Made by a program: the position numbers and the translations under genes. DNA of 64,000 bases from an archaeon (lineage in GTDB: Archaea; Undinarchaeota; Undinarchaeia; Undinarchaeales; JBDRKL01), in the NCBI GenBank assembly GCA_043814055.1, contig JBDRKL010000007.1, positions 32,001-96,000 on the forward strand. The letters run 5' to 3'. How positions within the stretch are numbered: position 1 is the first letter of the stretch; each line of letters begins with the position of its first letter. This document shows positions 2,168 through 27,748 of the stretch, in pieces. The notes below the pieces were generated by a model. It had not been told where the DNA came from. It did not search any database and saw nothing but the letters and a program-made list of their open reading frames with translations.

Positions 2168-3067
2168 ATGAACCAAACACTTTTGATTGCAGCACTAGGA
2201 CTATTAATTATCGCCGGACTTTTGAGCGGAACAGATTATAATATGGATAATTCCGACACAGACACTAGCATAACTGGACAAGTAACTGCTAGTACAACAG
2301 AGACCACAGCGTATACTTGCTGCTATTACAAAAGTGGAAGCAAATACTATTATGCCATTGTAGGAAACCCGACAAAATCCAACGGGTGCAATGACAAATA
2401 CAAATATGCTAGCGGCAATGGTTTCAACTATTGCGGCAAGAATCTTGGAACATCCGTATGCACTTCTTCACAATCAGCCACCAGCAAGAACTGTTGTACT
2501 GCCTGGTGCACTAAGAAAGGCATGACCATATCCTCAAATTCTGGAGCTTCCTGTACTTGCAAAAAAACAGTTGTAACAGTGCCTAAGCAATATGGTTCCG
2601 GTGAAGGAACTCCTGCTAAATGTACTATGTGTTATGTAAATATGAATACTGGTAATGAGGAGAAGAACGGCCATTGCGGTACTACTTGTCCTGCGGAACG
2701 AACAATCTGGGATGGCCAAATTTGGCTGCGTGGCCTAAGCGGTAAATATGATATAGTTAAAATTCCAAGACCCGCGGTTAAGATGACAGTATGTGGTGTT
2801 ATTGGTGGAGAGAACTGGGCTTGTGTTGACAAAGCTAAAGTAAGATTTTACTACAAAGAGAAGGGGGGAGATGAGTGGATTAAAATAGCTGACAAGTGGA
2901 TTACTGGAAGACATAATAAAGGTTGTGTAGATGTGTCGTTAGACTATGTAAATATTGATGCAGTAAGAGGTAAAATAGTTGGCACTGCAAAGAAGGATAT
3001 GTGGGATACTGGGGACTCTTGTAGCTATCTAGATGAACTATACATCAAGAGTATTTATGTAGATTAA
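2168..3067 (+). CDS. secreted or membrane-anchored Cys-rich surface protein
   Basis: N-terminal hydrophobic segment, Thr-rich linker, 10-Cys module shared with the pilins at 19287 and 19756, C-terminal domain shared with 26069. Confidence 0.75.
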   Translation: MNQTLLIAALGLLIIAGLLSGTDYNMDNSDTDTSITGQVTASTTETTAYTCCYYKSGSKYYYAIVGNPTKSNGCNDKYKYASGNGFNYCGKNLGTSVCTSSQSATSKNCCTAWCTKKGMTISSNSGASCTCKKTVVTVPKQYGSGEGTPAKCTMCYVNMNTGNEEKNGHCGTTCPAERTIWDGQIWLRGLSGKYDIVKIPRPAVKMTVCGVIGGENWACVDKAKVRFYYKEKGGDEWIKIADKWITGRHNKGCVDVSLDYVNIDAVRGKIVGTAKKDMWDTGDSCSYLDELYIKSIYVD

Positions 3068-3231: not shown

Positions 3232-3813
3232 ATGTTAAAGAAATTATTTACATCAGGTAGTAGGGTGGAGATACTAAAAGAACTCCTGTTCAATCCGCAA
3301 GGAGATTTCTACCTTAGTGACCTTGCTAGAACCACAGGAACTGCTCCAATACAGACCAGCAAGGAGCTTGAAAATCTTGAGTCATTAAATCTGGTTGAAA
3401 GGAAGAAAGTTGGAAAGCTCACTTTTTATAGCATTAACAAAAATGCTCCGATATATGAAGATATCAAAAACATTTTTTTGAAAACGGACAGTTTGGGCAA
3501 TTTTTTGAGAACACGGTTGAAGAATTATGAAATAACTCATGCTTTGATTTTTGGAAGCTTTGCAGCAGGCGAAGAAAGAAAAGACAGTGACGTGGATTTG
3601 CTCATAGTGGGAGATATAAACGAGAATGCTTTAGTCAAGACAGTGAGAGAATGCGAGAAGAGCTTGAAGAGAGAAATAAATTATATACTCTGGAATAGAA
3701 AAGAGTTTGAGAAAAGAGCCAGAGAAGGTCATCATCTTTTGAGGGATATAAAGGAAAAGTCAATGATAATGCTGGCAGGAGACGAGAATGAATTTAGAGA
3801 AGCTATTAAGTGA
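3232..3813 (+). CDS. wHTH + minimal nucleotidyltransferase (MNT) antitoxin
   Basis: N-terminal ArsR-like HTH; IFGSFAAG...SDVDLLIVG pol-beta motif. Confidence 0.9.
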   Translation: MLKKLFTSGSRVEILKELLFNPQGDFYLSDLARTTGTAPIQTSKELENLESLNLVERKKVGKLTFYSINKNAPIYEDIKNIFLKTDSLGNFLRTRLKNYEITHALIFGSFAAGEERKDSDVDLLIVGDINENALVKTVRECEKSLKREINYILWNRKEFEKRAREGHHLLRDIKEKSMIMLAGDENEFREAIK

Positions 3814-4228
3814 TAATTATATAGAAGAAATAGGAGTTGACAAAGAACTCACAAAGCGGGCTTTGAAAATAGCCGAGCGGGACTTGGAAGCTGCAAAGGA
3901 GAATTGGGAGGGGGGGCAGTACGACTGGACACTAGCAATAGCATATAATTCCATGCTACAGGCAGGACGTTCTCTTATGTTTTCAAAGGGCTACAGACCA
4001 GCAGGAGCATACAGACACGTTTCTGTTTCTTTGTTTGTGGACACACTTGAGGAACTTCATGAGTTCAGCACTCATTTTGATCGGCTGAGGAAAAAACGCC
4101 ATAAAGCAGTTTATGAACAGGCAGAAATTGTGTCAGAAGAAGAAGCACAGCAAGCGATTAACTGGACAACAAAATTTATTTCAAAAATAAAGGAGATTAT
4201 TGGTGGTGATTTAAATGGAACTAACTGA
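3788..4228 (+). CDS. HEPN domain protein (toxin partner)
   Basis: AYNSMLQAGR and RKKRHKAVY (R-x4-Y type HEPN) motifs; overlaps the MNT gene. Confidence 0.85.
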   Translation: MNLEKLLSDNYIEEIGVDKELTKRALKIAERDLEAAKENWEGGQYDWTLAIAYNSMLQAGRSLMFSKGYRPAGAYRHVSVSLFVDTLEELHEFSTHFDRLRKKRHKAVYEQAEIVSEEEAQQAINWTTKFISKIKEIIGGDLNGTN

Positions 4229-10117: not shown

Positions 10118-12430
10118 ATGCCAGAGATGAAGCCCGGCTCATATGAAGTGCAGAAAGAAGGAGACCAGACTGTCATTCGGTTCAACTGGGTTGGCGTGCC
10201 TTACAGCCCGTCAATTGAGGATGACCCGGAAACAATGTCCCGCGTCATAGACGCGATTCTCCAGGTTAGGGATGTTGACCGCATAGTGGTCGCGGAGGCT
10301 TACGAATATGAATATCCGCCGGACCAAACTAAAATTCTTGTTGAAATTGCCGAGACAATAGACCGATTGCTCCGCGGGGAGAACATTCTGTCAAAAGCAA
10401 AGAAGACCATTGCGGGCTGCGACCGCTGCGCAACCGAGCGCTTTGCATTCGTTGAGGACTTGCTGATTAACAAGATGAGGCGCGACCCAATCGCTGCGTA
10501 TATGAGCGTTCTCCGCGAGCTCAAGGACGCGGACGCAACCATACAATCGGTGAAATTTGACAAGTGTGCGGCCTGCTATGAGAATTATATCAACAATGTG
10601 CTGGACGTAATAAAGAGTAGCCTTGAGCAAACCCAGCTGATAAAGGCAATACTGCCAATTATTAGACAGGTACGACCAGGGGACCGGCTGGCTTACAGCG
10701 AGGTGTTCTCGCCGACCATTATGCCGAACTTCACGCTCACAAGGTACATGATAAGGCCGCCCAGCGACGGAGAATTAATAGACCAGTACACTCTGCTGGG
10801 CGACACTGATGTTGAGATTTACAGAATACCCCGCAAGACCGAGAAGTACTATCACATTGTCCCGCCGGAGTTCAAGCTCCCTGAGGACGAGTACATGGTT
10901 CTTGGGCTCGCGAGGAAGGTCATGCTTGGCTACAAGCCGAGCACTACGAGATTCACCGAGCACACGAGGGATTACTTCCAGAGGGTTGGCGAAGATTTGA
11001 TAGGCACTGTAGCAGGGGAGCAGAATATTGATTTGGGCTATGAAAAGGTGAAAGCTCTCTCGCAAATTCTCACAAGGTATACCACGGGTCTGGGCATAAT
11101 GGAAATACTGCTCGCGGACCCGAAGCTGCAGGACATTTACATAAACGCGCCAATCGGCGAGATGCCGATTCGCGTTTTGCACGCAGACTGGGAAGAGTGT
11201 GTCACGAATCTTATTCCGACCAGAGAGGACGCGCAAGCAATGGCAGCACGCTTCAGGCTTGAATCCGGAAGACCGCTGGACGAGGCAGAGCCAGTCTTGG
11301 ATACTAGCATTACGGTCCCAGGGGGAAGGGCGCGTGTCTGCGTTATCGCGAAGAACCTGAGCCCGCGCGGCTTGGCGTTCTGCTTCAGGAGGCACAGGAG
11401 CAAGCCGTGGACCTACCCGCTTTTCATAGCAAACAATATGATGAACTCGCTGTCAGCAGGGTTGTTGTGGTTCATCATAGATGGGGGGAGAACCATGCTG
11501 TTCGCTGGACCGCGAAGCTCTGGAAAAACCTCAATGCTTTCATCCACGATTGTGGAGATTATGAAAAAGTACCGCATCTTGTCAGTTGAAGACACGCTTG
11601 AACTGCCAATTGACGAGTACAGGGCGCTTGGGTTCAACGTGCTCTCAATGAAGGTGCAGTCTGTAATTACAAAACTTGAGGCAGAAGTCCCAGCTGACGA
11701 GGGAATAAGAACCGCGCTGCGCCTGGGTGACTCGTGTTTGATTATTGGCGAGGTTCGTTCAACTGAAGCAAAGGCGCTGTATGAGGCAATGCGGGTCGGC
11801 GCGCTGAGCAACGTTGTTGCAGGAACTATTCACGGGGATACTCCGTATGGTGTCTGGGACCGTGTTGTTAATGACCTGGGAGTTCCAACCACATCTTTCA
11901 AGGCAACTGACATACTCATAATGCCTGCCCCGATTAGGAGTGCGGATGGAATGCATAGGTACAGGCGCGTTGTCACGATTACAGAGGTCGGCAAGAACTG
12001 GACCGAGGACCCGCTGAAAGAAGGCGGTTTCACTGAATTGTTCAAGTATAATGCAAAGACAGACTCTCTTGAGGCGACCAAGGAGTTTCTGAACGGGGAC
12101 TCTGAAATTGTTAAAGCGATTGCATCGCGGGTCAAGGAATGGTCCGGGAACTGGGAAACCACGCTTGGCAACATTCAGCTAAGAGCGGACATAAAACAGG
12201 GCATTGTTGACCTTGCCAAGAAGAGCAAGAGGCCGGAGCTACTTGAGGCGCCGTTCGTTGGAGATGCCAACAACATGTTCCACATATTCTCTTCAGAAGT
12301 TAATCGCGAGCTTGGCGCGTTTGACTCCAAGGAAATACTCAAGAGGTGGAGGGACTGGTCACGCGACGAGGTAACTGGCAAGAACAAGAAAAAAGCAACG
12401 GAGACTGTGGAGTGGGAGTCCGGGGAATAA
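10118..12430 (+). CDS. type IV pilus / type II secretion assembly ATPase (PilB/TadA/VirB11 family)
   Basis: Walker A GPRSSGKT, SVEDTLEL Asp box, ALRLG...IIGEVRS Walker B, GTIHG His box. Confidence 0.93.
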   Translation: MPEMKPGSYEVQKEGDQTVIRFNWVGVPYSPSIEDDPETMSRVIDAILQVRDVDRIVVAEAYEYEYPPDQTKILVEIAETIDRLLRGENILSKAKKTIAGCDRCATERFAFVEDLLINKMRRDPIAAYMSVLRELKDADATIQSVKFDKCAACYENYINNVLDVIKSSLEQTQLIKAILPIIRQVRPGDRLAYSEVFSPTIMPNFTLTRYMIRPPSDGELIDQYTLLGDTDVEIYRIPRKTEKYYHIVPPEFKLPEDEYMVLGLARKVMLGYKPSTTRFTEHTRDYFQRVGEDLIGTVAGEQNIDLGYEKVKALSQILTRYTTGLGIMEILLADPKLQDIYINAPIGEMPIRVLHADWEECVTNLIPTREDAQAMAARFRLESGRPLDEAEPVLDTSITVPGGRARVCVIAKNLSPRGLAFCFRRHRSKPWTYPLFIANNMMNSLSAGLLWFIIDGGRTMLFAGPRSSGKTSMLSSTIVEIMKKYRILSVEDTLELPIDEYRALGFNVLSMKVQSVITKLEAEVPADEGIRTALRLGDSCLIIGEVRSTEAKALYEAMRVGALSNVVAGTIHGDTPYGVWDRVVNDLGVPTTSFKATDILIMPAPIRSADGMHRYRRVVTITEVGKNWTEDPLKEGGFTELFKYNAKTDSLEATKEFLNGDSEIVKAIASRVKEWSGNWETTLGNIQLRADIKQGIVDLAKKSKRPELLEAPFVGDANNMFHIFSSEVNRELGAFDSKEILKRWRDWSRDEVTGKNKKKATETVEWESGE

Positions 12431-14517
12431 TGGCGCTTTTTAAGAAGAAGGACAAGAACGATGAAATTCCAATACTGAAAGAGCAGAGGGAACTCCAGGA
12501 GCTTGTCAAGAAGTACAGGGAAAAAGAGCGGGAGAAGAGTTTAGTTGATAACGAGTTCACGCTTGAGTCTAACGAATACCAGCAATTTGTAGGGGAACGC
12601 GCGGAAGGAAAAAAATCGCACACTTATTTTGAAAAACTATGCAGCTTTTCGGGCAAGCACCTCAAAGTAGGCATGAAGAAGAAGGATGAAGACAAGATGA
12701 ATGAACATCTCTACTTCATTGGATACAACATAGAGGCAAGGGACGTGATAAGCTTCAGCATACTCACTTTTTTGATTTCAGTATTCATTGCTGGCGCGCT
12801 CCTGCTATTCTCGTTCCCGGCAGCGCTTATAATAATAATGATTGGATTGAGTGGATTGTTTGGAATTCAGCAATACCCGAAATACCTCTCCAAGCTTTAC
12901 ATAATGGACACCCTGAACGAGATGCCACTCGCGATAACGTATATGGTCATATACATGCGCTCAGCACCGACTCTTGAGGGCGCGGTGAGGTTCACGGCGA
13001 GGCACTTGAGCGGGTCGCTCGGCAGGGATCTTGAGAAAATGCTCTGGGACCTGGAAACTAATATTTACACGAATATGGATGACGCGCTCGCGAACTACGC
13101 AGCCAAGTGGAGGGATGCGAACAAGAACTTCTCAAATTCAATAGAGGTTTTGAGGAACTCTGAGAAGATTGGGAACGAGGGCGAGAGACTCAAGATGCTG
13201 GACGAAGCCACTAACATAATACTTAGCGGGAATTTGGAGACAATGGAATCCTTCGGCCGCAGCTTGAAGATGCCAATCATAGTCCTTTACATGATGTGCA
13301 TAGTGCTCCCGGTTATGGGATTGGTCATTGCGCCCGTGATGACAACGCTGGTTTCGCAGGGAGTTAGCGTGAACGCCATTGCGCTTGTGTATAACATAAT
13401 TCTTCCGCTGTTCGTTTACTTCTTCATCAAGTTCATAATGAGCAAGCGGCCCGGCTCTTTCATGAACCCGGACATAAGCACCCACCCTGGGCTTCCAAAG
13501 CCAGGGCATATGAGAGTTGGGAGCCATGACCTGCCGCTTTTGCCACTGTCAATAATCATATTTTTCGTTGTGTCACTCCCAACATTCCTGATGTTTGCGA
13601 ACCCTCCAGAGAATGTCGGCTATAGCCTGGCAAACATCCTGAAGTCCCTGGCAATCGTGTGGGGCGCTGCGCTGGCGATAGGCTTGTATGGCTGGGGGAG
13701 CTCATTCCAGAAGCTCAGTGTCAGGAAGAACCTGATTGAGCTTGAGCGCGACTTGGATATTGCCATATACACGATGGCTGACAAGCTCAAGATGGGCATA
13801 CCCATAGAGCGCGCGGTTGCAGACACCTCAGAATCCATGAAGACAGGCGCAATGAAAGAGTTCCTTGACAAGATTGGGACGAACATGAAGAACTTTGGAA
13901 TGCCCTTTGAGACTGCCATATTTGACCCAAAAAACGGCGCTCTGATAAATTATCCGTCAAAGCTGGTCAGGACGATAATGGAGGTTCTGGTGGAGAGCGC
14001 GCAGAAGGGAATAAAAGCCACTGCGACTTCAATGGCCACCATAGGCACGTACCTAAAGAACCTGAAGAAGGTCAACCTCACGATTGAAGAGCTTTTATCT
14101 GAGACCGCGAACACGATGAAGTTCCAGGCGCAGTTCATGACCTCATTCATTGCCGGCATCATAATCTCGCTTGACGTTCTCCTGTTCAAGATACTAACCG
14201 AGCTCGGGGGCAAGATAAACAGCTTGGACGTGTCCGCAGATGTAACTGGCAGCGTTGGGGTAAGCGGCATATTCCAGAACAGCATGTTCAACGTCGCGTC
14301 CGCGATACCTGCTGAACAAATGCAGATAGTAGTTGGCATCTATATGATACAGGTCACGTTCCTGCTCTCACTGCTCATCAATGGAGTCCAGAATGGGAGA
14401 GATAACATATACAGGAACTATATGGTGGGGAAAAACCTAATGATAGCCACGCTTGTTTACACGATTGCAATGCTGGCAGGAGTGTTCCTGTTTTCCGCGT
14501 TCAAACTGGGGGTATAA
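12430..14517 (+). CDS. pilus membrane platform protein (TadC/PilC/GspF family, two fused halves)
   Basis: TAATG-coupled to the ATPase; two T2SSF-like repeats (YMRSAPTLEGAV and KLKMGIPIERAV), many TMs. Confidence 0.88.
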   Translation: MALFKKKDKNDEIPILKEQRELQELVKKYREKEREKSLVDNEFTLESNEYQQFVGERAEGKKSHTYFEKLCSFSGKHLKVGMKKKDEDKMNEHLYFIGYNIEARDVISFSILTFLISVFIAGALLLFSFPAALIIIMIGLSGLFGIQQYPKYLSKLYIMDTLNEMPLAITYMVIYMRSAPTLEGAVRFTARHLSGSLGRDLEKMLWDLETNIYTNMDDALANYAAKWRDANKNFSNSIEVLRNSEKIGNEGERLKMLDEATNIILSGNLETMESFGRSLKMPIIVLYMMCIVLPVMGLVIAPVMTTLVSQGVSVNAIALVYNIILPLFVYFFIKFIMSKRPGSFMNPDISTHPGLPKPGHMRVGSHDLPLLPLSIIIFFVVSLPTFLMFANPPENVGYSLANILKSLAIVWGAALAIGLYGWGSSFQKLSVRKNLIELERDLDIAIYTMADKLKMGIPIERAVADTSESMKTGAMKEFLDKIGTNMKNFGMPFETAIFDPKNGALINYPSKLVRTIMEVLVESAQKGIKATATSMATIGTYLKNLKKVNLTIEELLSETANTMKFQAQFMTSFIAGIIISLDVLLFKILTELGGKINSLDVSADVTGSVGVSGIFQNSMFNVASAIPAEQMQIVVGIYMIQVTFLLSLLINGVQNGRDNIYRNYMVGKNLMIATLVYTIAMLAGVFLFSAFKLGV

Positions 14518-16555: not shown

Positions 16556-17206
16556 ATGGTAAGAATTGACCTCGCCTGGAAGATACTGCACAAGCCGCGC
16601 GAGGCATTTGAGGAACTAAAGGACAGTGTTGACTGGAAAGAAGGACTGACTGTCTATGGAATATACTCGCTTATCGGGTTGATTTTTTGCGGGGCAATGA
16701 TTAAGATGACTGGGCTCCAAATAATTCCAATTGACTTTGGGTTTGGGGGTTTTGTAAATGCAAGGTCGCTTGTATTTTCATTTGCCTATGGGATCGCGTT
16801 CCTTGGGGTATTCGCCGCAATGTCAAACTTCTTTGCCAGGAGACTGGGCGGCAACGGAAGCTTTAATGAAGTGCTTGGAATGTTCGGCTATGCGCAGGCG
16901 ATTGCGATAGTTCAGGGGTTAACCGGAGCTGTGATGCTTCTTGCCTTTAAGTTTAAGATGTTGGCTGACATCGGAGCAGCGATTGAGACTGGAGTAGTAG
17001 GGGTGAGTGATTACAGCTGGTTCCTCATAGGCGGGCTGATACTGGCAAACATATTTTATATTTGGGTTGGCGTGTTGCGCGGAGTTTCACTTTCAGTATC
17101 GCACGAGATTTCATTAATTCGCGGAATTGCTGCATCTTTCCTGCCGCTTTTGATTGTTGAGGTGGTGCTGTTTCTCGTGCTCCGAGCCATGGGAGTTGTC
17201 TCATGA
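16556..17206 (+). CDS. Yip1-domain membrane protein (paralogue of 14645)
   Basis: KILHKPREAFEEL, LGGNGSF...MFGYA; own TTTAAATA box about 28 nt upstream. Confidence 0.85.
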   Translation: MVRIDLAWKILHKPREAFEELKDSVDWKEGLTVYGIYSLIGLIFCGAMIKMTGLQIIPIDFGFGGFVNARSLVFSFAYGIAFLGVFAAMSNFFARRLGGNGSFNEVLGMFGYAQAIAIVQGLTGAVMLLAFKFKMLADIGAAIETGVVGVSDYSWFLIGGLILANIFYIWVGVLRGVSLSVSHEISLIRGIAASFLPLLIVEVVLFLVLRAMGVVS

Positions 17207-18339
17207 ACCGGAACCTGAGGAATAAGAGAGGTGGACCGAGTTCTTTCGTGCTCATAGTGATAACCATTTTAATCATACTTATTTCCGGAGCCGCAATAGG
17301 CAGTTTCAGCGCGAGCGCATCTTCAATAATCCCAGGAAAGGTGAGTGTGCAGAAGTGCAGATGGACTCTTGACATAAAGCACAAGTGGGATAATATGGTT
17401 GACGGGGGAGCGAAGGATATAGCAGATATAGGTAGAGATGTTGACAGCCATACTTGGCTCCCAGGTGAGAATGTGCAAAGAGTTGGCAATACGTTCAGTG
17501 GTAATGGCTGGAATAGTAATTTGGAGTTAGGAGCCAATGATATGGAAGAGGGGGGTCTGGATTCACTAAAGCTTAGCGTGGATATGTGCGTGGCGAACAC
17601 AAAGGTTAGTTGTATAGGTCCTGCGGATTATGTCGCTGACTGTCTGTACTCGTTGAGCACTGACACTTACTACGGGCTTGGCGGGGGAAAGGAAGAGGCA
17701 AAGACCAAGAATTACATTGACGATACCACGTGGGAAAATTTTGTCCTTTTCAACATATCGGTCAACATAACAAGACCAGGGAACATAAAACTGTATGGGG
17801 GCTGTGACAATTACACAACCCAAAGCGATGTAACCACGAGTACTTTCACGTTCCAGCAAATGACTGACGGAAACTGCAACGTCACCATACGGAATCTGGA
17901 CGAGGCACTTATTACGCTTGTTATGATATCAAAATGCCAGGATTATGGACCAGGGGATACTGAGAACTGCAAGTGCTTCCCGTGGGCTCATATTGGAAAC
18001 CAGCTTGGAAACGGGCTTCACAATAACAATGTGAGCGATGATGCGAGCTGGTCACCCAATTCAGGAACATACTTGAGAGAGGATGTCTTCACTAGCGCGC
18101 CATATCCAAGTGACTTCTCAAACTGGACATCTGCACCGCATCCGGACTATGCAGGGTGTGGCGGGAAATTCCCAGGAGACGATGATATTCAGAATTATAT
18201 ATCAGACCCGAGGGACGGGCTCTCTGTTGGGGTTGACCACGACCCGATATTAATAACCTCAGAATTTAGGATTGGAGAACAGGAGAATGCTTTTACCCGG
18301 CTTGAGCTCACACGGGATCGCGTGTATATGTATGGATAA
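17203..18339 (+). CDS. class III signal-peptide adhesin or minor pilin (paralogue of 15297)
   Basis: MNRNLRNKRG/GPSSFVLIVITIL; shared TYYGLGGG, LITLVMISxCQxYGP, NCKCFP, NGLHNN and GCGGxFPGD. Confidence 0.78.
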   Translation: MNRNLRNKRGGPSSFVLIVITILIILISGAAIGSFSASASSIIPGKVSVQKCRWTLDIKHKWDNMVDGGAKDIADIGRDVDSHTWLPGENVQRVGNTFSGNGWNSNLELGANDMEEGGLDSLKLSVDMCVANTKVSCIGPADYVADCLYSLSTDTYYGLGGGKEEAKTKNYIDDTTWENFVLFNISVNITRPGNIKLYGGCDNYTTQSDVTTSTFTFQQMTDGNCNVTIRNLDEALITLVMISKCQDYGPGDTENCKCFPWAHIGNQLGNGLHNNNVSDDASWSPNSGTYLREDVFTSAPYPSDFSNWTSAPHPDYAGCGGKFPGDDDIQNYISDPRDGLSVGVDHDPILITSEFRIGEQENAFTRLELTRDRVYMYG

Positions 18340-18475
18340 ATCAACAAACAAAAAAGCGGAACTCAGCATGACCTTCGGGACACTGATAGGGATAGTGATG
18401 GTTCTTGTGATTTTCGTAGTAGTAATGCTATTTTACAATCTTCTTGAAAAAATCGTGACAGGGATAACAGGATGA
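18332..18475 (+). CDS. 47 aa class III mini-pilin
   Basis: MDKSTNKKA/ELSMTFGTLIGIVMVLVIF. Confidence 0.75.
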   Translation: MDKSTNKKAELSMTFGTLIGIVMVLVIFVVVMLFYNLLEKIVTGITG

Positions 18476-18621
18476 AAATGAACAAGAAAGGCCAGATAAG
18501 CGCGAGCATGTTTATGATGATAGTTATGGCCATAGTTGGCATGCTGCTCATAGTGCTTGCCTATCAGCTTACTGCAAAGGGGAGCGCGCTTGGGCTGGAA
18601 GCAATACGCATATTTGGCTGA
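18472..18621 (+). CDS. 49 aa class III mini-pilin (not in ORF track)
   Basis: MKMNKKG/QISASMFMMIVMAIVGMLLIVLAYQ...RIFG*; ATGA overlap with the previous gene. Confidence 0.78.
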   Translation: MKMNKKGQISASMFMMIVMAIVGMLLIVLAYQLTAKGSALGLEAIRIFG

Positions 18622-18675
18622 GCTGATATGGGTTAACATTTAAATACTAGACGCCTAAATTAGAGCGGTGATTAT

Positions 18676-19062
18676 ATGACTGGAAATAAAGGGCAAGGAC
18701 TATCAATAAACATGCTGGTGGTCATAGCTCTCGCAGTTTTTGTTATTTTTCTCGTGTTCGGTTTCCTGACCGGAGGCTGGTCTTACTTTGCCGGCGCGTT
18801 CGGCGGGCTGACACAGCAGGGCGAGATGGACATTGCGAGGAGCAAGTGCCAAACCGACTGCACTCTATACATAACGCAGGGCAGGCCGCTTATTGACGAA
18901 AACGATGCGGACGACTACTGGAACAAGAAGCTTCTGCAAACAAGGAACGATGTTGACACGAACGGTGACGGCATAGTTGATCAATCTGACAAGAGTTACT
19001 CTTGCAGAACAGGTTTGAACCCAATGATGAGTGCAAGCGAGTGCGCTATCCGTACTAGTTAA
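18676..19062 (+). CDS. type IV pilin (candidate major pilin)
   Basis: MTGNKG/QGLSINMLVVIALAVFV; own TATA box (TTTAAATA near 18639) and GGTGA RBS; CxxxC, DTNGDG Ca-type loop. Confidence 0.8.
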   Translation: MTGNKGQGLSINMLVVIALAVFVIFLVFGFLTGGWSYFAGAFGGLTQQGEMDIARSKCQTDCTLYITQGRPLIDENDADDYWNKKLLQTRNDVDTNGDGIVDQSDKSYSCRTGLNPMMSASECAIRTS

Positions 19063-19068
19063 AGCAAG

Positions 19069-19287
19069 ATGAAACTTTTTGACAACAGAAAGGGCATATC
19101 TATTGGGATAAATATGATAGTAGTGTTAGCAGTCGCCCTTGTTGTCTTGATTGTCATTACTGGCTGGTTCCTTGGAGGATTCGGTGAAATAGGCGGTGCG
19201 ATACAGAACGTGTTCGGCGGAGCATCGGAACAGGCGAACGGCACTCACGTTGGCGAGCTTATTAACAATACAGGATGGGGTGGATAA
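19069..19287 (+). CDS. short type IV pilin
   Basis: MKLFDNRKG/ISIGINMIVVLAVALVVLIVITGWFLGG. Confidence 0.82.
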   Translation: MKLFDNRKGISIGINMIVVLAVALVVLIVITGWFLGGFGEIGGAIQNVFGGASEQANGTHVGELINNTGWGG

Positions 19288-19754
19288 TGAATAAGAAAGG
19301 AATGGAGCTTGGAATAAATTTGATTGTCATATTTGCAATATCGCTTGTAGTGCTGATAGTTATGATTGGCTGGTTCCTCGGAGGAGTTTCAGGAATTGGA
19401 GGCGCACTGAGGGGCGTTTCAGGAGACGCTGAGGATAAGGCAGATACCACTAATTTTAGCCAAGGGATAGAAGATGCAATTGGAGGGATTGGTGCGATTG
19501 GTGGGAGTGGAGGTTCAAGCGGGAGCGAGCAGGTTTATGTTTGCTGCAAGTATACAGTAGGTGGCGGATATGATGTATACAACGCCTGTGGAACAGGCTA
19601 CACGAGAGCCTCGTGGTCCACCAGCGTTGGAGGACACTGCTCATATCGCTGCTCAGATGCAACAGACAGCCAAGTATGCTGCCAGAACTATTGCAAAAGC
19701 ATGGGCGATGATTATGTAAGCTACAACTCGAATGAATGTACGTGCAGGAGTTAA
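19287..19754 (+). CDS. type IV pilin with C-terminal 10-Cys module
   Basis: MNKKG/MELGINLIVIFAISLVVLIVMIGWFLGG; Gly/Ser linker; CC..C..C..C..CC..C..CxC. Confidence 0.82.
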   Translation: MNKKGMELGINLIVIFAISLVVLIVMIGWFLGGVSGIGGALRGVSGDAEDKADTTNFSQGIEDAIGGIGAIGGSGGSSGSEQVYVCCKYTVGGGYDVYNACGTGYTRASWSTSVGGHCSYRCSDATDSQVCCQNYCKSMGDDYVSYNSNECTCRS

Positions 19755-19755
19755 C

Positions 19756-20214
19756 ATGAAAATGAAAATCAAAAATAAGCGCGGAGCAGAACTTGCGATT
19801 GGAACAATCGTTACAATAATAATAGTGCTCATAGTCCTCATAGTCATAGCGACCTGGTTCCTTGGCGGGTTTGACCAGATAGGGAGCAGCATATCCAACA
19901 TTGGGAACAGCACAGCCGGGGAGTCAACAGGGGTTATTGATGCTCTGAGGAGATCTACCAGCTCAGGGCAGGTCTACCTTTGCTGTAAGAAAGTAGTTGG
20001 CAATACCGCTTCATACACAACTAAAAAGAATGAGTGCCCACCTGATTTTCCAACTGTAGCGAACGACTTTTATATGTCGAGTGGTTACCTGACCTGTGGG
20101 TACTTATGCACCAACGCAAACGATGCCGAGAGCTGCTGCAGGGACTATTGCTCCACCCCCATCAAGGGTGGGTATGTAAGGGTAAGCGGCGGCAAGTGCT
20201 ACTGCAGGAGCTAA
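19756..20214 (+). CDS. type IV pilin with C-terminal 10-Cys module
   Basis: MKMKIKNKRG/AELAIGTIVTIIIVLIVLIVIATWFLGG; same Cys pattern as 19287. Confidence 0.82.
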   Translation: MKMKIKNKRGAELAIGTIVTIIIVLIVLIVIATWFLGGFDQIGSSISNIGNSTAGESTGVIDALRRSTSSGQVYLCCKKVVGNTASYTTKKNECPPDFPTVANDFYMSSGYLTCGYLCTNANDAESCCRDYCSTPIKGGYVRVSGGKCYCRS

Positions 20215-20215
20215 A

Positions 20216-20407
20216 ATGAAAATTAATAACACCCGTGGTGCGGAAATGGCATTCAGCACAATCATAGTAGTCATACTGCTCCTGATAGTTTTTACAGTGA
20301 TTGCGATGTTCTTCCTGGGGCAGACTGACCTGATATTTCCAGCGCTTGAAAACATCTCAGAGAGCGCGACCAATCAATTGCTGGCAGCTGTCACGCCTCC
20401 AGCATAA
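20216..20407 (+). CDS. short type IV pilin
   Basis: MKINNTRG/AEMAFSTIIVVILLLIVF. Confidence 0.8.
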   Translation: MKINNTRGAEMAFSTIIVVILLLIVFTVIAMFFLGQTDLIFPALENISESATNQLLAAVTPPA

Positions 20408-20440
20408 AGCTAATAAAGCGCGGTAGCTTTCTCCTATATT

Positions 20441-20875
20441 GTGAAAAGTGCAAGGTCGCGAAAGGGTGTAGGGATTACTATGGATTTCATAATCACGCTA
20501 GTCATAATCGTGGTTATGTTTTTTACCCTGCCTGAGGCCGCCGGGCAGTTAATGACTTCTTCTATTTTGGCCGAGTCTCACGCAAGAAACCTTGGGAATG
20601 CATTTGACGTAATAGCGCTGTCCCCTGGAAATGTTACAATAGAAAAATCCTGCCCGAAGGACGTGATTTTCGTTATAGATCATAACCAGATACTGGTACT
20701 GCTTGACGGAATGTCTGGCACGTATACTGCTGATTATTATTACATGATACCAACTGACGCGCGCTTCCCAACAGACCGAGTTGTCATAGACTGCAACATC
20801 AACACGATTGTTGAGCTTAGGAAATATGAGGAGGGGGGATACACGCAAATAGAGTATGAGGGGACGGACGGATGA
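20441..20875 (+). CDS. class III signal-peptide minor pilin
   Basis: GTG start; KSARSRKG/VGITMDFIITLVIIVV. Confidence 0.75.
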   Translation: MKSARSRKGVGITMDFIITLVIIVVMFFTLPEAAGQLMTSSILAESHARNLGNAFDVIALSPGNVTIEKSCPKDVIFVIDHNQILVLLDGMSGTYTADYYYMIPTDARFPTDRVVIDCNINTIVELRKYEEGGYTQIEYEGTDG

Positions 20876-21753
20876 AGGGAAAAGCACTCAGAAACCAGAA
20901 AGGAGACGTGGTTGCTTCAAAACCATTCAGCCTTATTTTGTTCGCAATACTGATTGTTTTTGTCGTGAGCACCCTGACGCTGATGCAGCTCACGGCCAAC
21001 AGCACTGCAACCTCAATCATGTTCCACGACGCGAATAGCTCGGTCAATATGATAACCGAAGCCCTCATAACTTACCCTGAATGCTTCGGCAGCGGGGAAA
21101 AAGGAATTCTGGACAAGAGCAAGGTGGAGGACATTGAGAACAGGAGAAATTGCGTGCACAAGGGGCCGTACACCTGGGAGATTGACATTTTTGCTGAGAA
21201 TGAATATGGAGGGGAAATAAACCAGCACGCGGACAGCGACTGCGGCATACTCAGTACTGCAACCCAACACGGGTCGTCAATAGATTATGATGTTAGTAAA
21301 TACGTGACTCCATACCTGGTGGAGCCGATTACGATAAGGGGCGAAGGCAGCGATTATGTTGGATGGATGTATTTTTACTTAGGAAGCATGGAATTTGCAA
21401 TGGTGCTGGACAAGAAAGATAGGGATAATTATGAGCTTACTGTTGTAAATGTTGGCAATTGCCACCAGCAAGATGTCACCTATGACGTGAGGATTAGCAT
21501 AGCGAACGTGAGCAATGGTGAGATACCAGTAGATTTCATTGACACCTATGGCATAGAATTTGAGGGTGACACCGACGGCGACCACATCGTGAAGCAGGTC
21601 TTTTCCCTTGGCATTGATGAAAACAAGAAAATGGCTCTGAAGATAAACAATCCTGATAACGTGAAATTGCCAAGCGATTACATGATACGCGTGGTTGGGC
21701 AGATAGACGGGCATCCTGCTTACTCAAAGACAATGTGGAGGCGGGTGACGTGA
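20872..21753 (+). CDS. class III signal-peptide minor pilin
   Basis: MKGKALRNQKG/DVVASKPFSLILFAILIVF; beta-rich body. Confidence 0.72.
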   Translation: MKGKALRNQKGDVVASKPFSLILFAILIVFVVSTLTLMQLTANSTATSIMFHDANSSVNMITEALITYPECFGSGEKGILDKSKVEDIENRRNCVHKGPYTWEIDIFAENEYGGEINQHADSDCGILSTATQHGSSIDYDVSKYVTPYLVEPITIRGEGSDYVGWMYFYLGSMEFAMVLDKKDRDNYELTVVNVGNCHQQDVTYDVRISIANVSNGEIPVDFIDTYGIEFEGDTDGDHIVKQVFSLGIDENKKMALKINNPDNVKLPSDYMIRVVGQIDGHPAYSKTMWRRVT

Positions 21754-22217
21754 GAATTTCAAAAAACCGCAGAGGCGTTAGCGAACTGCCATTCGCTGCT
21801 TTTGCCCTGATACTTGTAATCATGGGGCTTGGGTGCCTGATGTTCTTTTTCAGCATAGTGCTCCCACTGGTTGTCGGAGGCGGGGTTGAAAGTACGTACG
21901 TGGCGCAGGAAGACGCGGCAATCGCATCCCGGCAGGTGCTGAGCATTCTGAGAACGCAGGACTCAGACGGTGTGACCTATTCAAAAAGGATAGAGTCCGC
22001 AGTTGAGGGGGAGAATGTTGACGAGACCAAGGAACTAATACGGTCTTACTTGAGAACCAGTGGCACTTGCTACAACCGGTTTTACGCGCAGCACAATGGG
22101 GCAGACCATCTTCTCATAGAGAATAACCAAGTGACAGATTACATAATGAAATATGAACTGCCGGCAAAGGACGGGAACAAGATAACCGTTGTCCTGGAGG
22201 TGTGCGAATGGCGCTGA
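21750..22217 (+). CDS. class III signal-peptide minor pilin
   Basis: GTGA overlap start; RISKNRRG/VSELPFAAFALILVI. Confidence 0.75.
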   Translation: MRISKNRRGVSELPFAAFALILVIMGLGCLMFFFSIVLPLVVGGGVESTYVAQEDAAIASRQVLSILRTQDSDGVTYSKRIESAVEGENVDETKELIRSYLRTSGTCYNRFYAQHNGADHLLIENNQVTDYIMKYELPAKDGNKITVVLEVCEWR

Positions 22218-23485
22218 AAGGGAACAGAAAAGGACAGATGATTAAGATAGTCTTTGCAGGCGCAATTGTGTTCCTGCTCGGCGGGGCGATAGCGACTTAT
22301 GTAGTTGGAATGGGCGGAGCAGCAGCAGCCCGGACAGGGTACAGGCAAATTGTTTTTGATAATATTTATGAAATGGAAGGCATGACAATATTTTACGACG
22401 ATATGCTGGACCAGCAGGTGGAACTGGAGCTTGAGGGGCTTGGATACGACCTCACGAATTTCTGCCCCTACGACTTGTTTTCGTACAGCGACTCTGGGTG
22501 GGTGATAGATCCAGACGCGGAGAGCGCGCTGACAGGAATCACGTCACAATACCACAACTATGGCAGAAATGTGCTCCCTAATCCGAAGACTGTTGAAATA
22601 GAGTTTGAGGCAGAGCCAGAGAGCAGTCTGGCGCGTGAAGACTGGCAGCTTGACGGGCTTTACTCAACCTTGAAATTGGAAATAATTCCGGAAGAGCCGC
22701 TGAAGACAAATTCATCAGGCATCAAGATAGTTTCAACACACGGACCGTACAATACTGAGATAGTTCAAACCGCGCTGCCCCATCCAAATTTGGTTGTTGA
22801 GTCTTCTGATGCAACCGCGCCTGATGGATTTTATGCTGGGAAAAAAATAATAGTTAATGGTTTCGTGAACAACAACGGGTGCGCTGCGGCAAAATTCTGG
22901 ACAATATTCCAGGGGGACTTTGAGTTCTGCCCAATTGCCCTGCAACTGGTTGCCATAGACGACACAGGGGCTGAAACAATTGTTGACAGCATAAATGCCA
23001 ATGACTGGGGAAATCCAATTTCAGGCTCGCAGCATTGTATGATAATACATCCAAAGGAACAAGTTGGCTTTTCAATGGAATGGACCCCTGCGAATGCCGG
23101 TACATACACGCTCAGGGTTGATGTTGACCCAATCACCCCCCACAACATAATTTATGAGGCAGATCTCACTGATAACCAGATGGAGCTTGACCCTGTAACC
23201 ATAATGGACACTACAAATATTGAGGAGTATAAGTGCGGATATTATCACGTGAGTGATACAGTAGTTGAAACAACTGCGCGCTGCTCGGTTTCAACAGATG
23301 GGAACAAGGGCTGGGGCTGGATAAAACTACCCCGCATTTATGCTGACCCGTGGAACGATTGCCTGGGCGCTGAACTAGACAGTGATGTTCTTTGCCTAAG
23401 TGGAATTTGGATCTGCGGCTCAACGCAGATAACGACTTGTAACGAGACCGCAACGGTAACAGAGTGCAGTTGTGACAATACTTAA
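22208..23485 (+). CDS. class III signal-peptide adhesin with CARDB-like Ig domain and Cys-rich tail
   Basis: MALKGNRKG/QMIKIVFAGAIVF; HPNLVV...VNNNG...WTPANAGTYTLRVDVDP..NIIYEADLTDN is CARDB-like. Confidence 0.78.
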   Translation: MALKGNRKGQMIKIVFAGAIVFLLGGAIATYVVGMGGAAAARTGYRQIVFDNIYEMEGMTIFYDDMLDQQVELELEGLGYDLTNFCPYDLFSYSDSGWVIDPDAESALTGITSQYHNYGRNVLPNPKTVEIEFEAEPESSLAREDWQLDGLYSTLKLEIIPEEPLKTNSSGIKIVSTHGPYNTEIVQTALPHPNLVVESSDATAPDGFYAGKKIIVNGFVNNNGCAAAKFWTIFQGDFEFCPIALQLVAIDDTGAETIVDSINANDWGNPISGSQHCMIIHPKEQVGFSMEWTPANAGTYTLRVDVDPITPHNIIYEADLTDNQMELDPVTIMDTTNIEEYKCGYYHVSDTVVETTARCSVSTDGNKGWGWIKLPRIYADPWNDCLGAELDSDVLCLSGIWICGSTQITTCNETATVTECSCDNT

Positions 23486-24570: not shown

Positions 24571-26072
24571 AAAAGCTGAAGACAAAACTTCTTGACATAG
24601 AGGCAGGAAAGCCCATAGTACTTTTAAACCGAGAGGATGCGACTGATATGTCCCTGCACATTGCTGACCGCGTCAGGGTTGGCGTGAGAGGGAAAACGCA
24701 GACAGCGATTGTTGACATTTCTGACAAATTTATCAAGCCAGGAGAAGTTGGAATATTTGATGAGATAGAAAAAAGGCTTGGCCTGAAGAGAGGCAACATA
24801 GTAGAGGTCAGGGTGGCGGATAGACCTGAATCTATTGATTATATTCGGAAGAAGATGGATGGAATGAAACTCACAGAGCTGGAATTGCTCTCAATAATAC
24901 AGGACATTGTTGATGACAACCTGAGCAGCGTTGAGATAAGCGCGTTCGTCGCGGCGTCATACATAAGGGGCTATGACATGGACGAGACCGCCGCAATGAC
25001 AAGAGCAATGGTTGCGACAGGAAAGCAGATAGACTTTGGAGATCATGTTGTTGACAAGCACTGCATCGGAGGCGTTGCTGGGAACAGGACCACAATGCTC
25101 GTGGTTCCAATCGTGGCTGCGGCTGGGCTTACCATACCCAAAACGAGCTCAAGAGCCATAACAAGCGCGGCAGGAACTGCTGACACTATGGAAGTCCTGG
25201 CAAATGTTGAATTCAAGGTTAACAAGATACGCGAGATTGTGAAGAAAACCGGCGGATGCATCGTATGGAGCGGTGCAGTTAATCTAGCGCCAGCGGATGA
25301 CAAAATAATAAGAGTCAGGTATCCGATGCTGCTTGACCCTGAAGGCCAGCTGCTCGCGAGCATAATGGCGAAGAAGAAGTCCATTGGGTCTGATTATGTT
25401 GTAATAGATATTCCAGTGGGTAAGGGCGCGAAAATATCAAACAAGAAAGATGGGAATGCTCTTGCAAAGAAGTTCATAGATTTGGGCAAACGTATTGGAA
25501 TAAAAGTTGAATGCCTTGTCACGGATGGGAGCGAGCCAATAGGGCGCGGCATAGGCCCGGGGCTTGAGGCGCGGGATGTCTTGCTTTGCCTGAACAATGA
25601 AGGGCCCCAGGATCTTTCTGAAAAAGCGTGCGAACTTGCTGGTGTGCTATTTGAGCTTTCAGGGAAGAGCAAGAGAGGACAGGGCAAGAAACGCGCACAG
25701 CGCCTTTTGGAGTCTGGCAAAGCCAAGAAAAAGATGATGGAAATCATAAAGGCACAGGGAGGAAACCCAAAAGTAACGCCTGAAGATATTAAAATTGGCA
25801 AATACACTCAAGTAGTTATTGCAGCACAGAATGGAAATGTGCACCACATAGATAATAAATTGCTTTCAAAGGTGGCAAGGGCTGCTGGAGCTCCTAAGGA
25901 CCATCAGGCTGGGATATATCTTCACACATCGCTGGGAAAAACGATTGAAGCGGGAATGCCGTTGTTCACGATATATGCCAGGGACAAGGAGAAACTTAAG
26001 GATGCTGTTGAACTAACAAAAAGGTATAATCCCGTGCAGGTAGGCGGGTTGACGCTAGAGGCGCTGGAATGA
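24567..26072 (+). CDS. AMP phosphorylase (archaeal thymidine-phosphorylase family)
   Basis: 501 aa; N-terminal extension, DKHCIGGVAGN, PKTSSRAITSAAGTAD, SIMAKK, ARAAGAPKD. Confidence 0.95.
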   Translation: MKKLKTKLLDIEAGKPIVLLNREDATDMSLHIADRVRVGVRGKTQTAIVDISDKFIKPGEVGIFDEIEKRLGLKRGNIVEVRVADRPESIDYIRKKMDGMKLTELELLSIIQDIVDDNLSSVEISAFVAASYIRGYDMDETAAMTRAMVATGKQIDFGDHVVDKHCIGGVAGNRTTMLVVPIVAAAGLTIPKTSSRAITSAAGTADTMEVLANVEFKVNKIREIVKKTGGCIVWSGAVNLAPADDKIIRVRYPMLLDPEGQLLASIMAKKKSIGSDYVVIDIPVGKGAKISNKKDGNALAKKFIDLGKRIGIKVECLVTDGSEPIGRGIGPGLEARDVLLCLNNEGPQDLSEKACELAGVLFELSGKSKRGQGKKRAQRLLESGKAKKKMMEIIKAQGGNPKVTPEDIKIGKYTQVVIAAQNGNVHHIDNKLLSKVARAAGAPKDHQAGIYLHTSLGKTIEAGMPLFTIYARDKEKLKDAVELTKRYNPVQVGGLTLEALE

Positions 26073-27748
26073 AAATGAAAAACAGAAAAGGGCAGGAAGG
26101 TGGCGGGCTTGGTACAATGATATGGTTCATAATAGCCTTCTTCATATTTTTCCTGCTCCTCCCCATAATAACAAGCGTGGGGGGAAGCGTTCTTGACAGC
26201 CTCAACCTTATGGTATACGAACCAGGGTTTGACCCTGCATTTTCGTGGCAGGAACAGGAGAGCAGGCCGATGTACCCAGAATCACTGCAGGTTGATAGGG
26301 AAGGCAGAATATACTTTTTTATCAAGGAATCCGATTATGAGATTACGCTGATACAGGTTGACGCGGGTGGCTCTTATTATGATGAACTGCAAACATTTCC
26401 AAGCACGGAATCGCAACAGATTTTTCCGAGCTCATTGCGGGTTAGTGAAGATGGCAAGGAGTTTTATTTTGCGGGCTTGTATGCTGTTAGAGATGATGAT
26501 TATTTTAGGATAAGAAAATACCTCAGGGGCGAGACAAGTTTGGGGGATGACCAATATGAGTTACTCAATAAAGACAGCAGCAAAATTTACCCCGAGACAT
26601 TGATGCTGAGCGAATGGAACGACGTGTATTTCGGGAAGAGGTATGACAGCAAACAGGTTGACATTTACAAGGTGGGAACTGGAAACACCGAGGTGCTCAC
26701 GTATTCCTATGACTGGGACTCAAGCAACAACAAGGAGAATAAAATGGACACGTGGTCGCTCTCTGTTGACAAGTACGGCGACTTCACTTTCATAACCGAG
26801 GATAACTGGGGGAATTCTCCCGACAACGCATACATAAAAAGATATGATTATTCGGAAAACGCGCTGAATACCATTTACGAGTGGAATGACCAGGGAGAGG
26901 ACGAGCACGACATATTCACGGATTCTGTAACAACCGCAAATAATGGGAAAACTTATTTCTTTGTTCGAGCCGAGGACAAAGACAAGGTAAGCTTTAGGCG
27001 GGTTGGGGCAATTGACAGTTTTGCCCCGCTTGCAAAATGGGACTTCCACGAAACAAAGCCGATTCAGACAAACTCTGTAACGATTGGCTGGGATGAAAAT
27101 GCTTATTTCGTGTACAAGGATGATGACTCTAGGTACAACATAGGGAAGGTTGACTTGCCGGCTGACGCGCATGAGGTTGACTCGGATGGCGATGGCCTTA
27201 CAGACAAGGAGGAGGCTGCTAGCGGGACTGATCCAATGAAAGCAGACACTGATGGGGATATGTATACTGACTTCTTTGAGATACGCTCAGGGTCAGACCC
27301 GACGAATTCCAGTGTCATAGCGATGGAGAAGGCAACATACGCTGACAGCATTGACAGCTGTGTTGAAGATGAAGACCACGAGGGATATTGCAACCGCACA
27401 CAGATTCTTGTCTTTGACGAGGACTTAGAAAACATTATAAACATAAAGGCGTGCGGTGTGAGAGGCGGTGGCGATGGCTGCCTTGCTGAAGCAAACATAC
27501 AATTTTGGTATAATAGCAGCGCCACAGGAAACTATGTGGACATTGGCATTAGCGGGTACGCAGCATCCGGCTTGCCGAACTGGAACTGCTTGGAAAAGGC
27601 ATTCGCTCCCAGCAGTTCAGTGAATAGCAATGCTTTAAAGGGCAGAATAAAAGAGGAACAAGGGAGTTGGGCTGCCTCGTGCAAATATCTGGACGCCCTG
27701 AGCGTGACCATTACGTATATGACGCCTGCAGAGCAGGACGTGGTGTGA
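26069..27748 (+). CDS. class III signal-peptide adhesin: propeller-like repeats, Ca-binding TSP3-like repeats, Cys-containing C-terminal domain
   Basis: MKMKNRKG/QEGGGLGTMIWF; repeated (YP)ESL-x-V...G-x-x-YF units; DSDGDGLTDKEE..GTDP..ADTDGD. Confidence 0.8.
   Translation: MKMKNRKGQEGGGLGTMIWFIIAFFIFFLLLPIITSVGGSVLDSLNLMVYEPGFDPAFSWQEQESRPMYPESLQVDREGRIYFFIKESDYEITLIQVDAGGSYYDELQTFPSTESQQIFPSSLRVSEDGKEFYFAGLYAVRDDDYFRIRKYLRGETSLGDDQYELLNKDSSKIYPETLMLSEWNDVYFGKRYDSKQVDIYKVGTGNTEVLTYSYDWDSSNNKENKMDTWSLSVDKYGDFTFITEDNWGNSPDNAYIKRYDYSENALNTIYEWNDQGEDEHDIFTDSVTTANNGKTYFFVRAEDKDKVSFRRVGAIDSFAPLAKWDFHETKPIQTNSVTIGWDENAYFVYKDDDSRYNIGKVDLPADAHEVDSDGDGLTDKEEAASGTDPMKADTDGDMYTDFFEIRSGSDPTNSSVIAMEKATYADSIDSCVEDEDHEGYCNRTQILVFDEDLENIINIKACGVRGGGDGCLAEANIQFWYNSSATGNYVDIGISGYAASGLPNWNCLEKAFAPSSSVNSNALKGRIKEEQGSWAASCKYLDALSVTITYMTPAEQDVV

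Follow-up and report, generated by a model that had tools for sequence, protein, structure and literature searches.

The window analysed here is a stretch of 64,000 nucleotides, positions 32001–96000 of contig JBDRKL010000007.1 (C7), from an archaeon of the Undinarchaeales whose genome comprises 979,685 bases in 14 contigs, is 82% complete and, being small, suggests a DPANN-type lifestyle. We focus on two adjacent genes on its forward strand, pilin 1 (19287..19754, 155 amino acids) and pilin 2 (19756..20214, 152 amino acids), whose products start like pilins and end in a module with ten cysteines. An earlier note on this DNA had interpreted these modules as defensin-like, disulfide-rich tails displayed on a pilus for binding or permeabilising host envelopes. 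The best-supported account from our analysis is that the two products are type IV pilin-like proteins of a modular kind, in which an alpha-1-only pilin would be combined with a cystine-stabilised surface domain.

Two pilin-like genes and their cysteine module

The probable starts are ATG 19756 for pilin 2 and ATG 19287 for pilin 1, the latter sharing bases with the stop codon of the preceding gene (TAATG). Longer open reading frames (ORFs) span 19275–19754 (159 residues, P0001) and 19732–20214 (160 residues, P0002), and the database copies have 155 (P0003) and 150 (P0004) residues. Both proteins share a common build, with a short basic N terminus (KKG or KRG), a hydrophobic segment of roughly 25 residues up to WFLGG, a Gly/Ser-rich linker of 32–47 residues and the C-terminal module. 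For pilin 1, translation and the N-terminus scan place the class III signal MNKKG and the hydrophobic alpha-1 segment ending in WFLGG at 19287..19385, followed by a Gly/Ser/Asp-rich linker of 47 residues (19386..19526) and a module of 75 residues (19527..19751); pilin 2 begins with MKMKIKNKRG and its module of 82 residues lies at 19966..20211.

All ten cysteines of each protein fall within its last 75–82 residues, and our translations are identical to the two tails quoted in the earlier note, in which the cysteines form the series CC, C, C, C, CCxxxC and CxC, with RS and the stop codon coming next. The two proteins are 34% identical over their length (56/163, E = 2e-14), and their modules alone 36% identical with ten of ten cysteines aligned, in agreement with the strong variation between cysteines that had been described.

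The RS ending had also been counted as part of the tail motif. It is present in both pilins, but the last codons of both genes read TGC AGG AGY TAA, followed by one base and the next ATG, so that the Arg-Ser codons encode AGGAG on the forward strand, at 19746..19750 in pilin 1 (5 nt before the pilin 2 start) and at 20206..20210 in pilin 2 (5 nt before ATG 20216). The eight remaining copies of the module found in this genome end in A, KK, SE, SE, RD, K, EG and W, and none of them in RS. Because AGGAG lies 5 nt before both start codons and no other copy ends in RS, the conserved RS is most simply read as an embedded ribosome-binding site that stands outside the protein motif.

These copies came to light when a regular expression for the cysteine framework was run over the six frames of the genome, where it retrieved nine ORFs. 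A profile of these nine added a tenth, divergent copy with eight cysteines at E = 5.6e-5, giving ten profile matches in the organism's own genome; the pilin 1 module scores 62.2 bits against this profile, which includes it. As a non-circular test, a profile built from the eight non-pilin copies was compared with 7,901 six-frame ORFs; the two pilins, pilin 2 with E = 7.9e-5 and pilin 1 with E = 0.31, were the sole matches under E = 10. Since a profile without pilins recovers the pilins, the module shared by their tails is more than a chance resemblance between cysteine-rich sequences.

The module family within and beyond the genome

Besides the pilins, the carriers comprise a protein of 299 amino acids in the same window (2168..3067, forward strand, 79 bits), a multi-pass membrane protein of 1115 amino acids, a protein of 512 amino acids whose signal resembles a lipobox (SGC), a neighbouring pair of anchored proteins (277 and 161 amino acids), a membrane protein of 436 amino acids, an FG-GAP repeat protein of 588 amino acids (E = 1.4e-6) that bears the eight-cysteine copy, and an InlB B-repeat protein (E = 1.4e-11) split across a contig join. 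Weak CARDB and TSP3 matches also occur among them. The split protein is represented by one ORF at the start of C7 (L025 3–917, reverse strand) and one at the start of C4 (L013 2–451, forward strand) that share an identical overlap of 28 residues; C4 and C7 thus probably abut and encode one InlB-repeat protein that ends in the module. Nine of the ten copies lie on C7 or at the start of C4.

By eye, every carrier has an N-terminal hydrophobic signal or anchor. The modules, 75–91 residues long, always sit inside proteins of 150–1115 residues, in nine of the ten cases at the C terminus, where the CxC is followed by 0–2 residues, and mostly after a linker rich in Ser, Thr, Gly and Pro. The 299-residue protein, which matches no Pfam family, is built the other way round, with the module (2303–2566) directly following the N-terminal anchor and preceding a second cysteine-containing domain. 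Since the same domain terminates eight other secreted or membrane-anchored proteins, it is no invention of the pilins but a mobile surface domain, restricted to this lineage as far as searched. The copies are 23–43% identical to one another, with net charges from −13 to +10 (−2 in pilin 1, +3 in pilin 2) and 8–13 aromatic residues (F, W or Y) each. In the pilin copies the fourth cysteine is shifted and forms a CxxxC with the fifth, and in a tree these two modules are sisters (81/83 support), the other eight being unresolved. Because the pilin modules are sisters, the simplest history would be that a pilin acquired the module once and was then duplicated in tandem.

This distribution over carriers bears on what the module might do. 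It could be a common docking or scaffolding module that ties the cell's own surface proteins to a shared receptor, such as the S-layer, the pilus or another module, much like anchors of the SLH or dockerin type, with the pilin copies marking attachment points on the filament. Its terminal position in ten of ten proteins, pilins and non-pilins alike, and its addition to proteins that already bear adhesion-type domains (FG-GAP, InlB repeat, CARDB-like) would suit such a role; most carriers, however, are already equipped with a membrane anchor, a lipobox or a pilin helix, so that a second anchor is not obviously needed, and the divergence and charge range given above fit diversified ligands better than one receptor. 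We consider docking an unlikely explanation.

Two further observations concern the neighbours of the module. The second cysteine-containing domain of the 299-residue protein recurs beside the module in four proteins, as a stretch of roughly 90 residues marked by CG..GGE towards its beginning and YLD towards its end (window 2600–3067; L014 6277–9624, L025 999–2765 and L025 3–917, the last three on the reverse strand), and it has no Pfam match. At C7:19021–25222 (L014 22–6223, reverse strand), five genes in a row encode paralogues that have SGC lipobox-like signals and match CARDB weakly; one bears the module, and another, of 438 amino acids (L014 22–1338), has a different cysteine-rich tail with CxxxC ... 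CxC that does not match the module profile.

The earlier note had proposed a profile search for the module across archaea. Run in six frames with the nine- or ten-copy profile, this search is positive in the module's own genome, with no real match in a sample that covers six groups at phylum level and a total of 1007 other archaeal genomes (16 + 17 + 1 + 371 + 301 + 301): none of the 16 from its own phylum matched, nor any in the groups of 17, 1, 301 and 301. The single hit among the 371 (E = 7.5e-4) was rejected as a chance match, as it lies in an alternative frame of a Lys/Arg-rich ORF of 136 amino acids (ribosomal-like by eye) and lacks the cysteine pattern. Likewise, a profile of the two pilins gave four weak matches among 60 relatives (E = 0.03–0.18), all of which were rejected: three contain stop codons, and the fourth covers 29 positions in a 63-residue frame.

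Protein databases gave the same picture within the reach of each search. Among searches that need shared exact words, a word-seeded search with pilin 1 found only itself among 230 candidates, the nine-copy profile found only three of the organism's own proteins among 5,834 longer candidates, and the ten-copy profile only three own proteins among 35 candidates of 41–160 amino acids. The sole exhaustive HMMER scan, over 1.84 billion representatives, used the two-pilin profile, which is insensitive (in-genome paralogues score just E = 0.4), and returned two matches, both to the pilins themselves. Pattern-seeded scans with single proteins yielded 126 pattern matches in genome contigs and 100 in metagenome contigs, none of them confirmed; the ESM Atlas gave no usable match and PHROGs none. 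Neither did the portions of the literature at hand on DPANN pilins and surface proteins, cysteine-rich or cysteine-stabilized, and on archaeal or prokaryotic defensins contain an account of the module. We thus describe its relatives as not found in the organisms searched, and do not claim their absence.

Predicted fold and comparison with known structures

We modelled the module with AlphaFold2 (AF2) from two alignments. With the pilin 1 module as first of nine rows the model is poor, with a predicted local distance difference test (pLDDT) score of 57.9 and only the last 30 residues at about 74; with a canonical copy as first of ten rows it is confident (pLDDT 90.2, predicted template modelling score (pTM) 0.79). 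The latter comprises a strand at 2–8 that holds the CC, a strand at 14–18, a long loop with three cysteines, a helix at 55–65 with the CCxxxC, and strands at 70–74 and 77–80, the last with the CxC, which amounts to a predicted beta-hairpin/loop/helix/hairpin architecture. Here C59 and C63 lie inside the helix (H55–65) and C78 and C80 inside the last strand (E77–80); the CxxxC of pilin 1 falls inside a helix as well (H45–58), in its weak model.

The cysteine count is even, at ten, in nine copies, and the tenth lacks the first cysteine of the N-terminal CC and the fourth cysteine. Because exactly these two are lost together, the eight-cysteine copy hints that they form one disulfide, which in the canonical copy would be C6–C41, and we infer five disulfides per ten-cysteine module. 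Ten cysteines in about 80 residues could instead form a metal-binding cluster, with Zn or Fe–S and no disulfides, in line with the finding that no VKOR (PF07884) or DsbA-like (PF13462) gene turned up in the 82%-complete genome. We regard this as hardly probable at all, given the predicted extracellular location of the modules behind signals and anchors, the CC and CxC spacings without paired CxxC knuckles or a conserved His, the confident folding of the module by AF2 without metal, and the copy that lacks exactly two cysteines.

Very high cysteine contents are common among the other secreted or lipobox proteins predicted from this genome, for example 20 cysteines in 184 amino acids (C4:39557–40111) or 62 in 866 (C10:11935–14535), and extracellular cysteines are for that reason a general habit of the organism. 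The same abundance, together with the terminal position of the module and a high cysteine and aromatic content of the sort seen in a self-contained core, would suit an inert structural cap, a knob that merely stabilises exposed protein ends or protects them from proteases or low pH and binds no ligand. That ten copies are kept in a reduced genome of about 1 Mb, and that the module is the sole folded part of two pilins, argues for a role beyond capping and makes this explanation distinctly improbable.

The comparison with defensins started from the cysteine-stabilised alpha-beta (CS-alpha-beta) signature that the earlier note had seen in the tails. The placement of the motif holds in the confident model, where the CxxxC lies in a predicted helix and the CxC in a predicted strand, but no significant structural or profile match accompanies it. 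Foldseek searches of the PDB with the good model returned 14 rows at E ≤ 10 and none at E ≤ 0.001, with kaliotoxin best at E = 4.0, followed by heliomicin (6.8) and BmKTX (8.8); the poorer model gave 48 rows, among them tamapin, NaD1 and OsAFP1 at E = 9.0. Among the viral structures of BFVD the best E value is 2.7. A Pfam search with all ten modules at E ≤ 10 returned six families, each once, and no defensin or CS-alpha-beta toxin family, and PDB sequences gave no match to the profile at E ≤ 10 and two chance rows for pilin 2. The domain as a whole is, as far as its models can be compared, without a detectable match to a solved structure, and we take the recurrence of CS-alpha-beta peptides among the sub-threshold Foldseek rows as a lead towards a common helix–hairpin motif and no proof of membership.

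The similarities and differences can be stated in these terms. As in CS-alpha-beta peptides of the cis-defensin or scorpion short-toxin kind, the module is predicted to have its CxxxC in a helix and its CxC in the hairpin that comes after the helix, within the last strand. The disulfides that define the CS-alpha-beta fold run between helix and strand, from C(i) to C(j) and from C(i+4) to C(j+2), and would correspond in the canonical copy to C59–C78 and C63–C80. It differs in having ten cysteines instead of six to eight and in adding an N-terminal beta-hairpin and a loop of about 35 residues, predicted to be stapled by disulfides. In CS-alpha-beta folds the third core disulfide uses a cysteine in the penultimate strand (GxC); the absence of this cysteine, already remarked upon, is borne out in all ten copies, none of which has a cysteine between CCxxxC and CxC. 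Whereas CS-alpha-beta peptides are free, small (about 30–55 amino acids) and usually cationic, the module is a domain of larger anchored proteins, and its charge range and 8–13 aromatic residues make it a poor fit to a family of cationic, membrane-active peptides. What stands of the earlier interpretation is thus the predicted position of the motif, whereas kinship with defensins and permeabilisation find no support in a fold or family match or in the charge. A defensin- or scorpion-toxin-like module that attacks or permeabilises host envelopes from the pilus is, in our estimate, very improbable.

Pilin identity, locus and possible function

Both proteins have the short charged N terminus ending in [KR][GA] and the hydrophobic helix of at least about 20 residues expected of class III signal proteins, and the A24 prepilin peptidase expected alongside such proteins is encoded elsewhere in the genome (PF01478, C13:35428–35772, 37.3 bits, above the cut-off). 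The pilin genes belong to a run of 12 consecutive, close-packed or overlapping genes at 17203–23485, all on the forward strand, whose products start, as read from their translations, with [KR][GA] and a hydrophobic stretch; a crude genome-wide scan of N termini recovered 11 of the 12 as one run, both pilins included. The run begins with a cysteine-containing protein of 378 amino acids (17203..18339; NKRG) that has no Pfam or NCBIfam family, followed by three short pilin-like genes (18332–18475, 18472–18621 and 18676–19062; KKA, KKG or NKG). Downstream of pilin 2 lie five more, also close-packed or overlapping (20216–20407, 20441–20875, 20872–21753, 21735–22217 and 22202–23485), four of which were recovered by the scan; the last matches CARDB (E = 2.4e-5).

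The gene directly upstream of pilin 1 (19069..19287, forward strand) encodes 72 amino acids, an alpha-1 helix ending in WFLGG and a Gly-rich tail, with 49% identity to residues 5–67 of pilin 1 (E = 1.9e-14). This product resembles the same short pilin minus its module, and because such a paralogue exists, the module appears to have been grafted onto a short pilin.

Further upstream on the same strand, a FlaI/TadA-like secretion or assembly ATPase of 770 amino acids (10118..12430) is clearly recognisable by its Pfam T2SSE match (E = 5.1e-13), its top NCBIfam match being the archaellum FlaI model (E = 5.1e-31), under the equivalog cut-off of that model. The adjacent gene (12346..14517, 723 amino acids) is a candidate for the membrane platform protein, by its position and a weak match to T2SSF (E = 0.0022; 18.4 bits, below the cut-off of 25.2). 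Two Yip1-domain proteins are also encoded upstream of the pilin genes.

Relative to archaeal type IV pilins and other class III signal proteins, pilin 1 and pilin 2 thus share the [KR]G and hydrophobic N terminus, an operon with a FlaI/TadA-like ATPase and a genome with an A24 peptidase, and differ in matching no curated pilin model and in having the cysteine module in place of the usual beta-rich head. A parallel lies in bacteria. According to the part at hand of a survey of modular pilins, pilins with a grafted functional module are widespread in bacteria and mediate adhesion, as in Streptococcus sanguinis, where PilB has a vWA module and PilC a lectin module, and some of these modules are common to the non-pilin adhesins PilC/PilY1 (PMC8179133). 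As there, an N-terminal pilin part, a linker and a displayed module follow one another, the module is shared with non-pilin proteins, and ligand binding is the theme that the bacterial examples have in common (PMC8179133). The carrier here differs in consisting of just an alpha-1 helix and a linker of low complexity, a globular pilin module being absent, and the grafted module in having no database signature and no relatives found outside this genome.

Several results weigh against the modular-pilin account or its extension to adhesion. Neither protein belongs to a curated pilin family (Pfam/NCBIfam, E ≤ 0.01/0.1), the only match of this kind being a sub-threshold PilX hit on one module (16.5 bits, where the cut-off is 25). 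Proteins outside filaments, such as the bindosome components of Sulfolobus, can have class III signals too, and incorporation of the two proteins into a pilus, which we infer, is therefore unproven. The tie of pilin 1 to the module family runs mainly via pilin 2, as pilin 1 itself reaches just E = 0.31 against the non-pilin profile; the AF2 model of its own module is poor (pLDDT 57.9); and the search for VKOR and DsbA-like genes in the 82%-complete genome found none. Finally, no homologue has a known function, and adhesion is suggested by context.

Under the modular-pilin account, each protein would be a short alpha-1-only pilin joined by a flexible Gly/Ser-rich linker to an extracellular domain of about 80 residues with five disulfides. 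The A24 prepilin peptidase would cut after [KR]G, the hydrophobic helix would enter a filament assembled by the neighbouring ATPase and the candidate platform protein, and the linker would hold a compact, protease-resistant cystine knob off the filament, either along its length or at its tip. The loops that vary between the fixed cysteines may then be the binding sites for a ligand carried by a different cell or surface, the most plausible being the host envelope of an episymbiont; from the context, we lean slightly towards binding to the envelope of a partner cell. A bolder version, which we hold to be doubtful, is that the module represents a new disulfide-rich fold around a cystine-stabilised helix–hairpin core, either the first archaeal, domain-embedded relative of CS-alpha-beta or an independent re-invention of it, and that it serves an episymbiont lineage as a general host-recognition device on pili and eight other surface proteins, its loops diversifying specificity.

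Other features of the window and genome may be noted here. The last gene of the run (22202–23485, 427 amino acids), with its class III signal-like N terminus and CARDB match, has a C-terminal tail of its own with eight cysteines that ends in CxC, and a protein of 559 amino acids at 26069–27748 combines a class III signal-like N terminus with a bacterial TSP3 repeat (E = 1.5e-12). Clusters at C12:73323–80550 and C9:74570–78930 contain further genes with such N termini and bring the pilin- or archaellin-type loci of this genome to at least three; among these, the ten-cysteine module occurs only at the one in the window. At 3232–4228, a nucleotidyltransferase gene (Polbeta/NTP_transf_2, E ~1e-9) adjoins a HEPN gene (E = 7e-15), the usual pairing of a toxin–antitoxin module of the HEPN/MNT type, and genes of the aRF1 and aIF-2B types also lie nearby, which together with the FlaI-like ATPase identify the organism as archaeal.

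An attached life on other cells is assumed for small-genome archaea of this type, and the molecules that make this contact are largely unknown. In the genome studied here, about 1% of the genes (10 of roughly 1,081 ORFs in a rough greedy set) carry an orphan cystine-rich domain, and its two pilin copies inside a pilus operon are concrete candidates for an attachment device. As a confidently predicted small fold without a PDB match, the module is also a target for experimental structure work. It is an orphan, multi-copy extracellular domain and an instance of the modular-pilin principle in an archaeon; the part at hand of the bacterial survey covers bacteria only, with archaea unmentioned, and the account given here, if true, would extend that principle to the archaea (PMC8179133).
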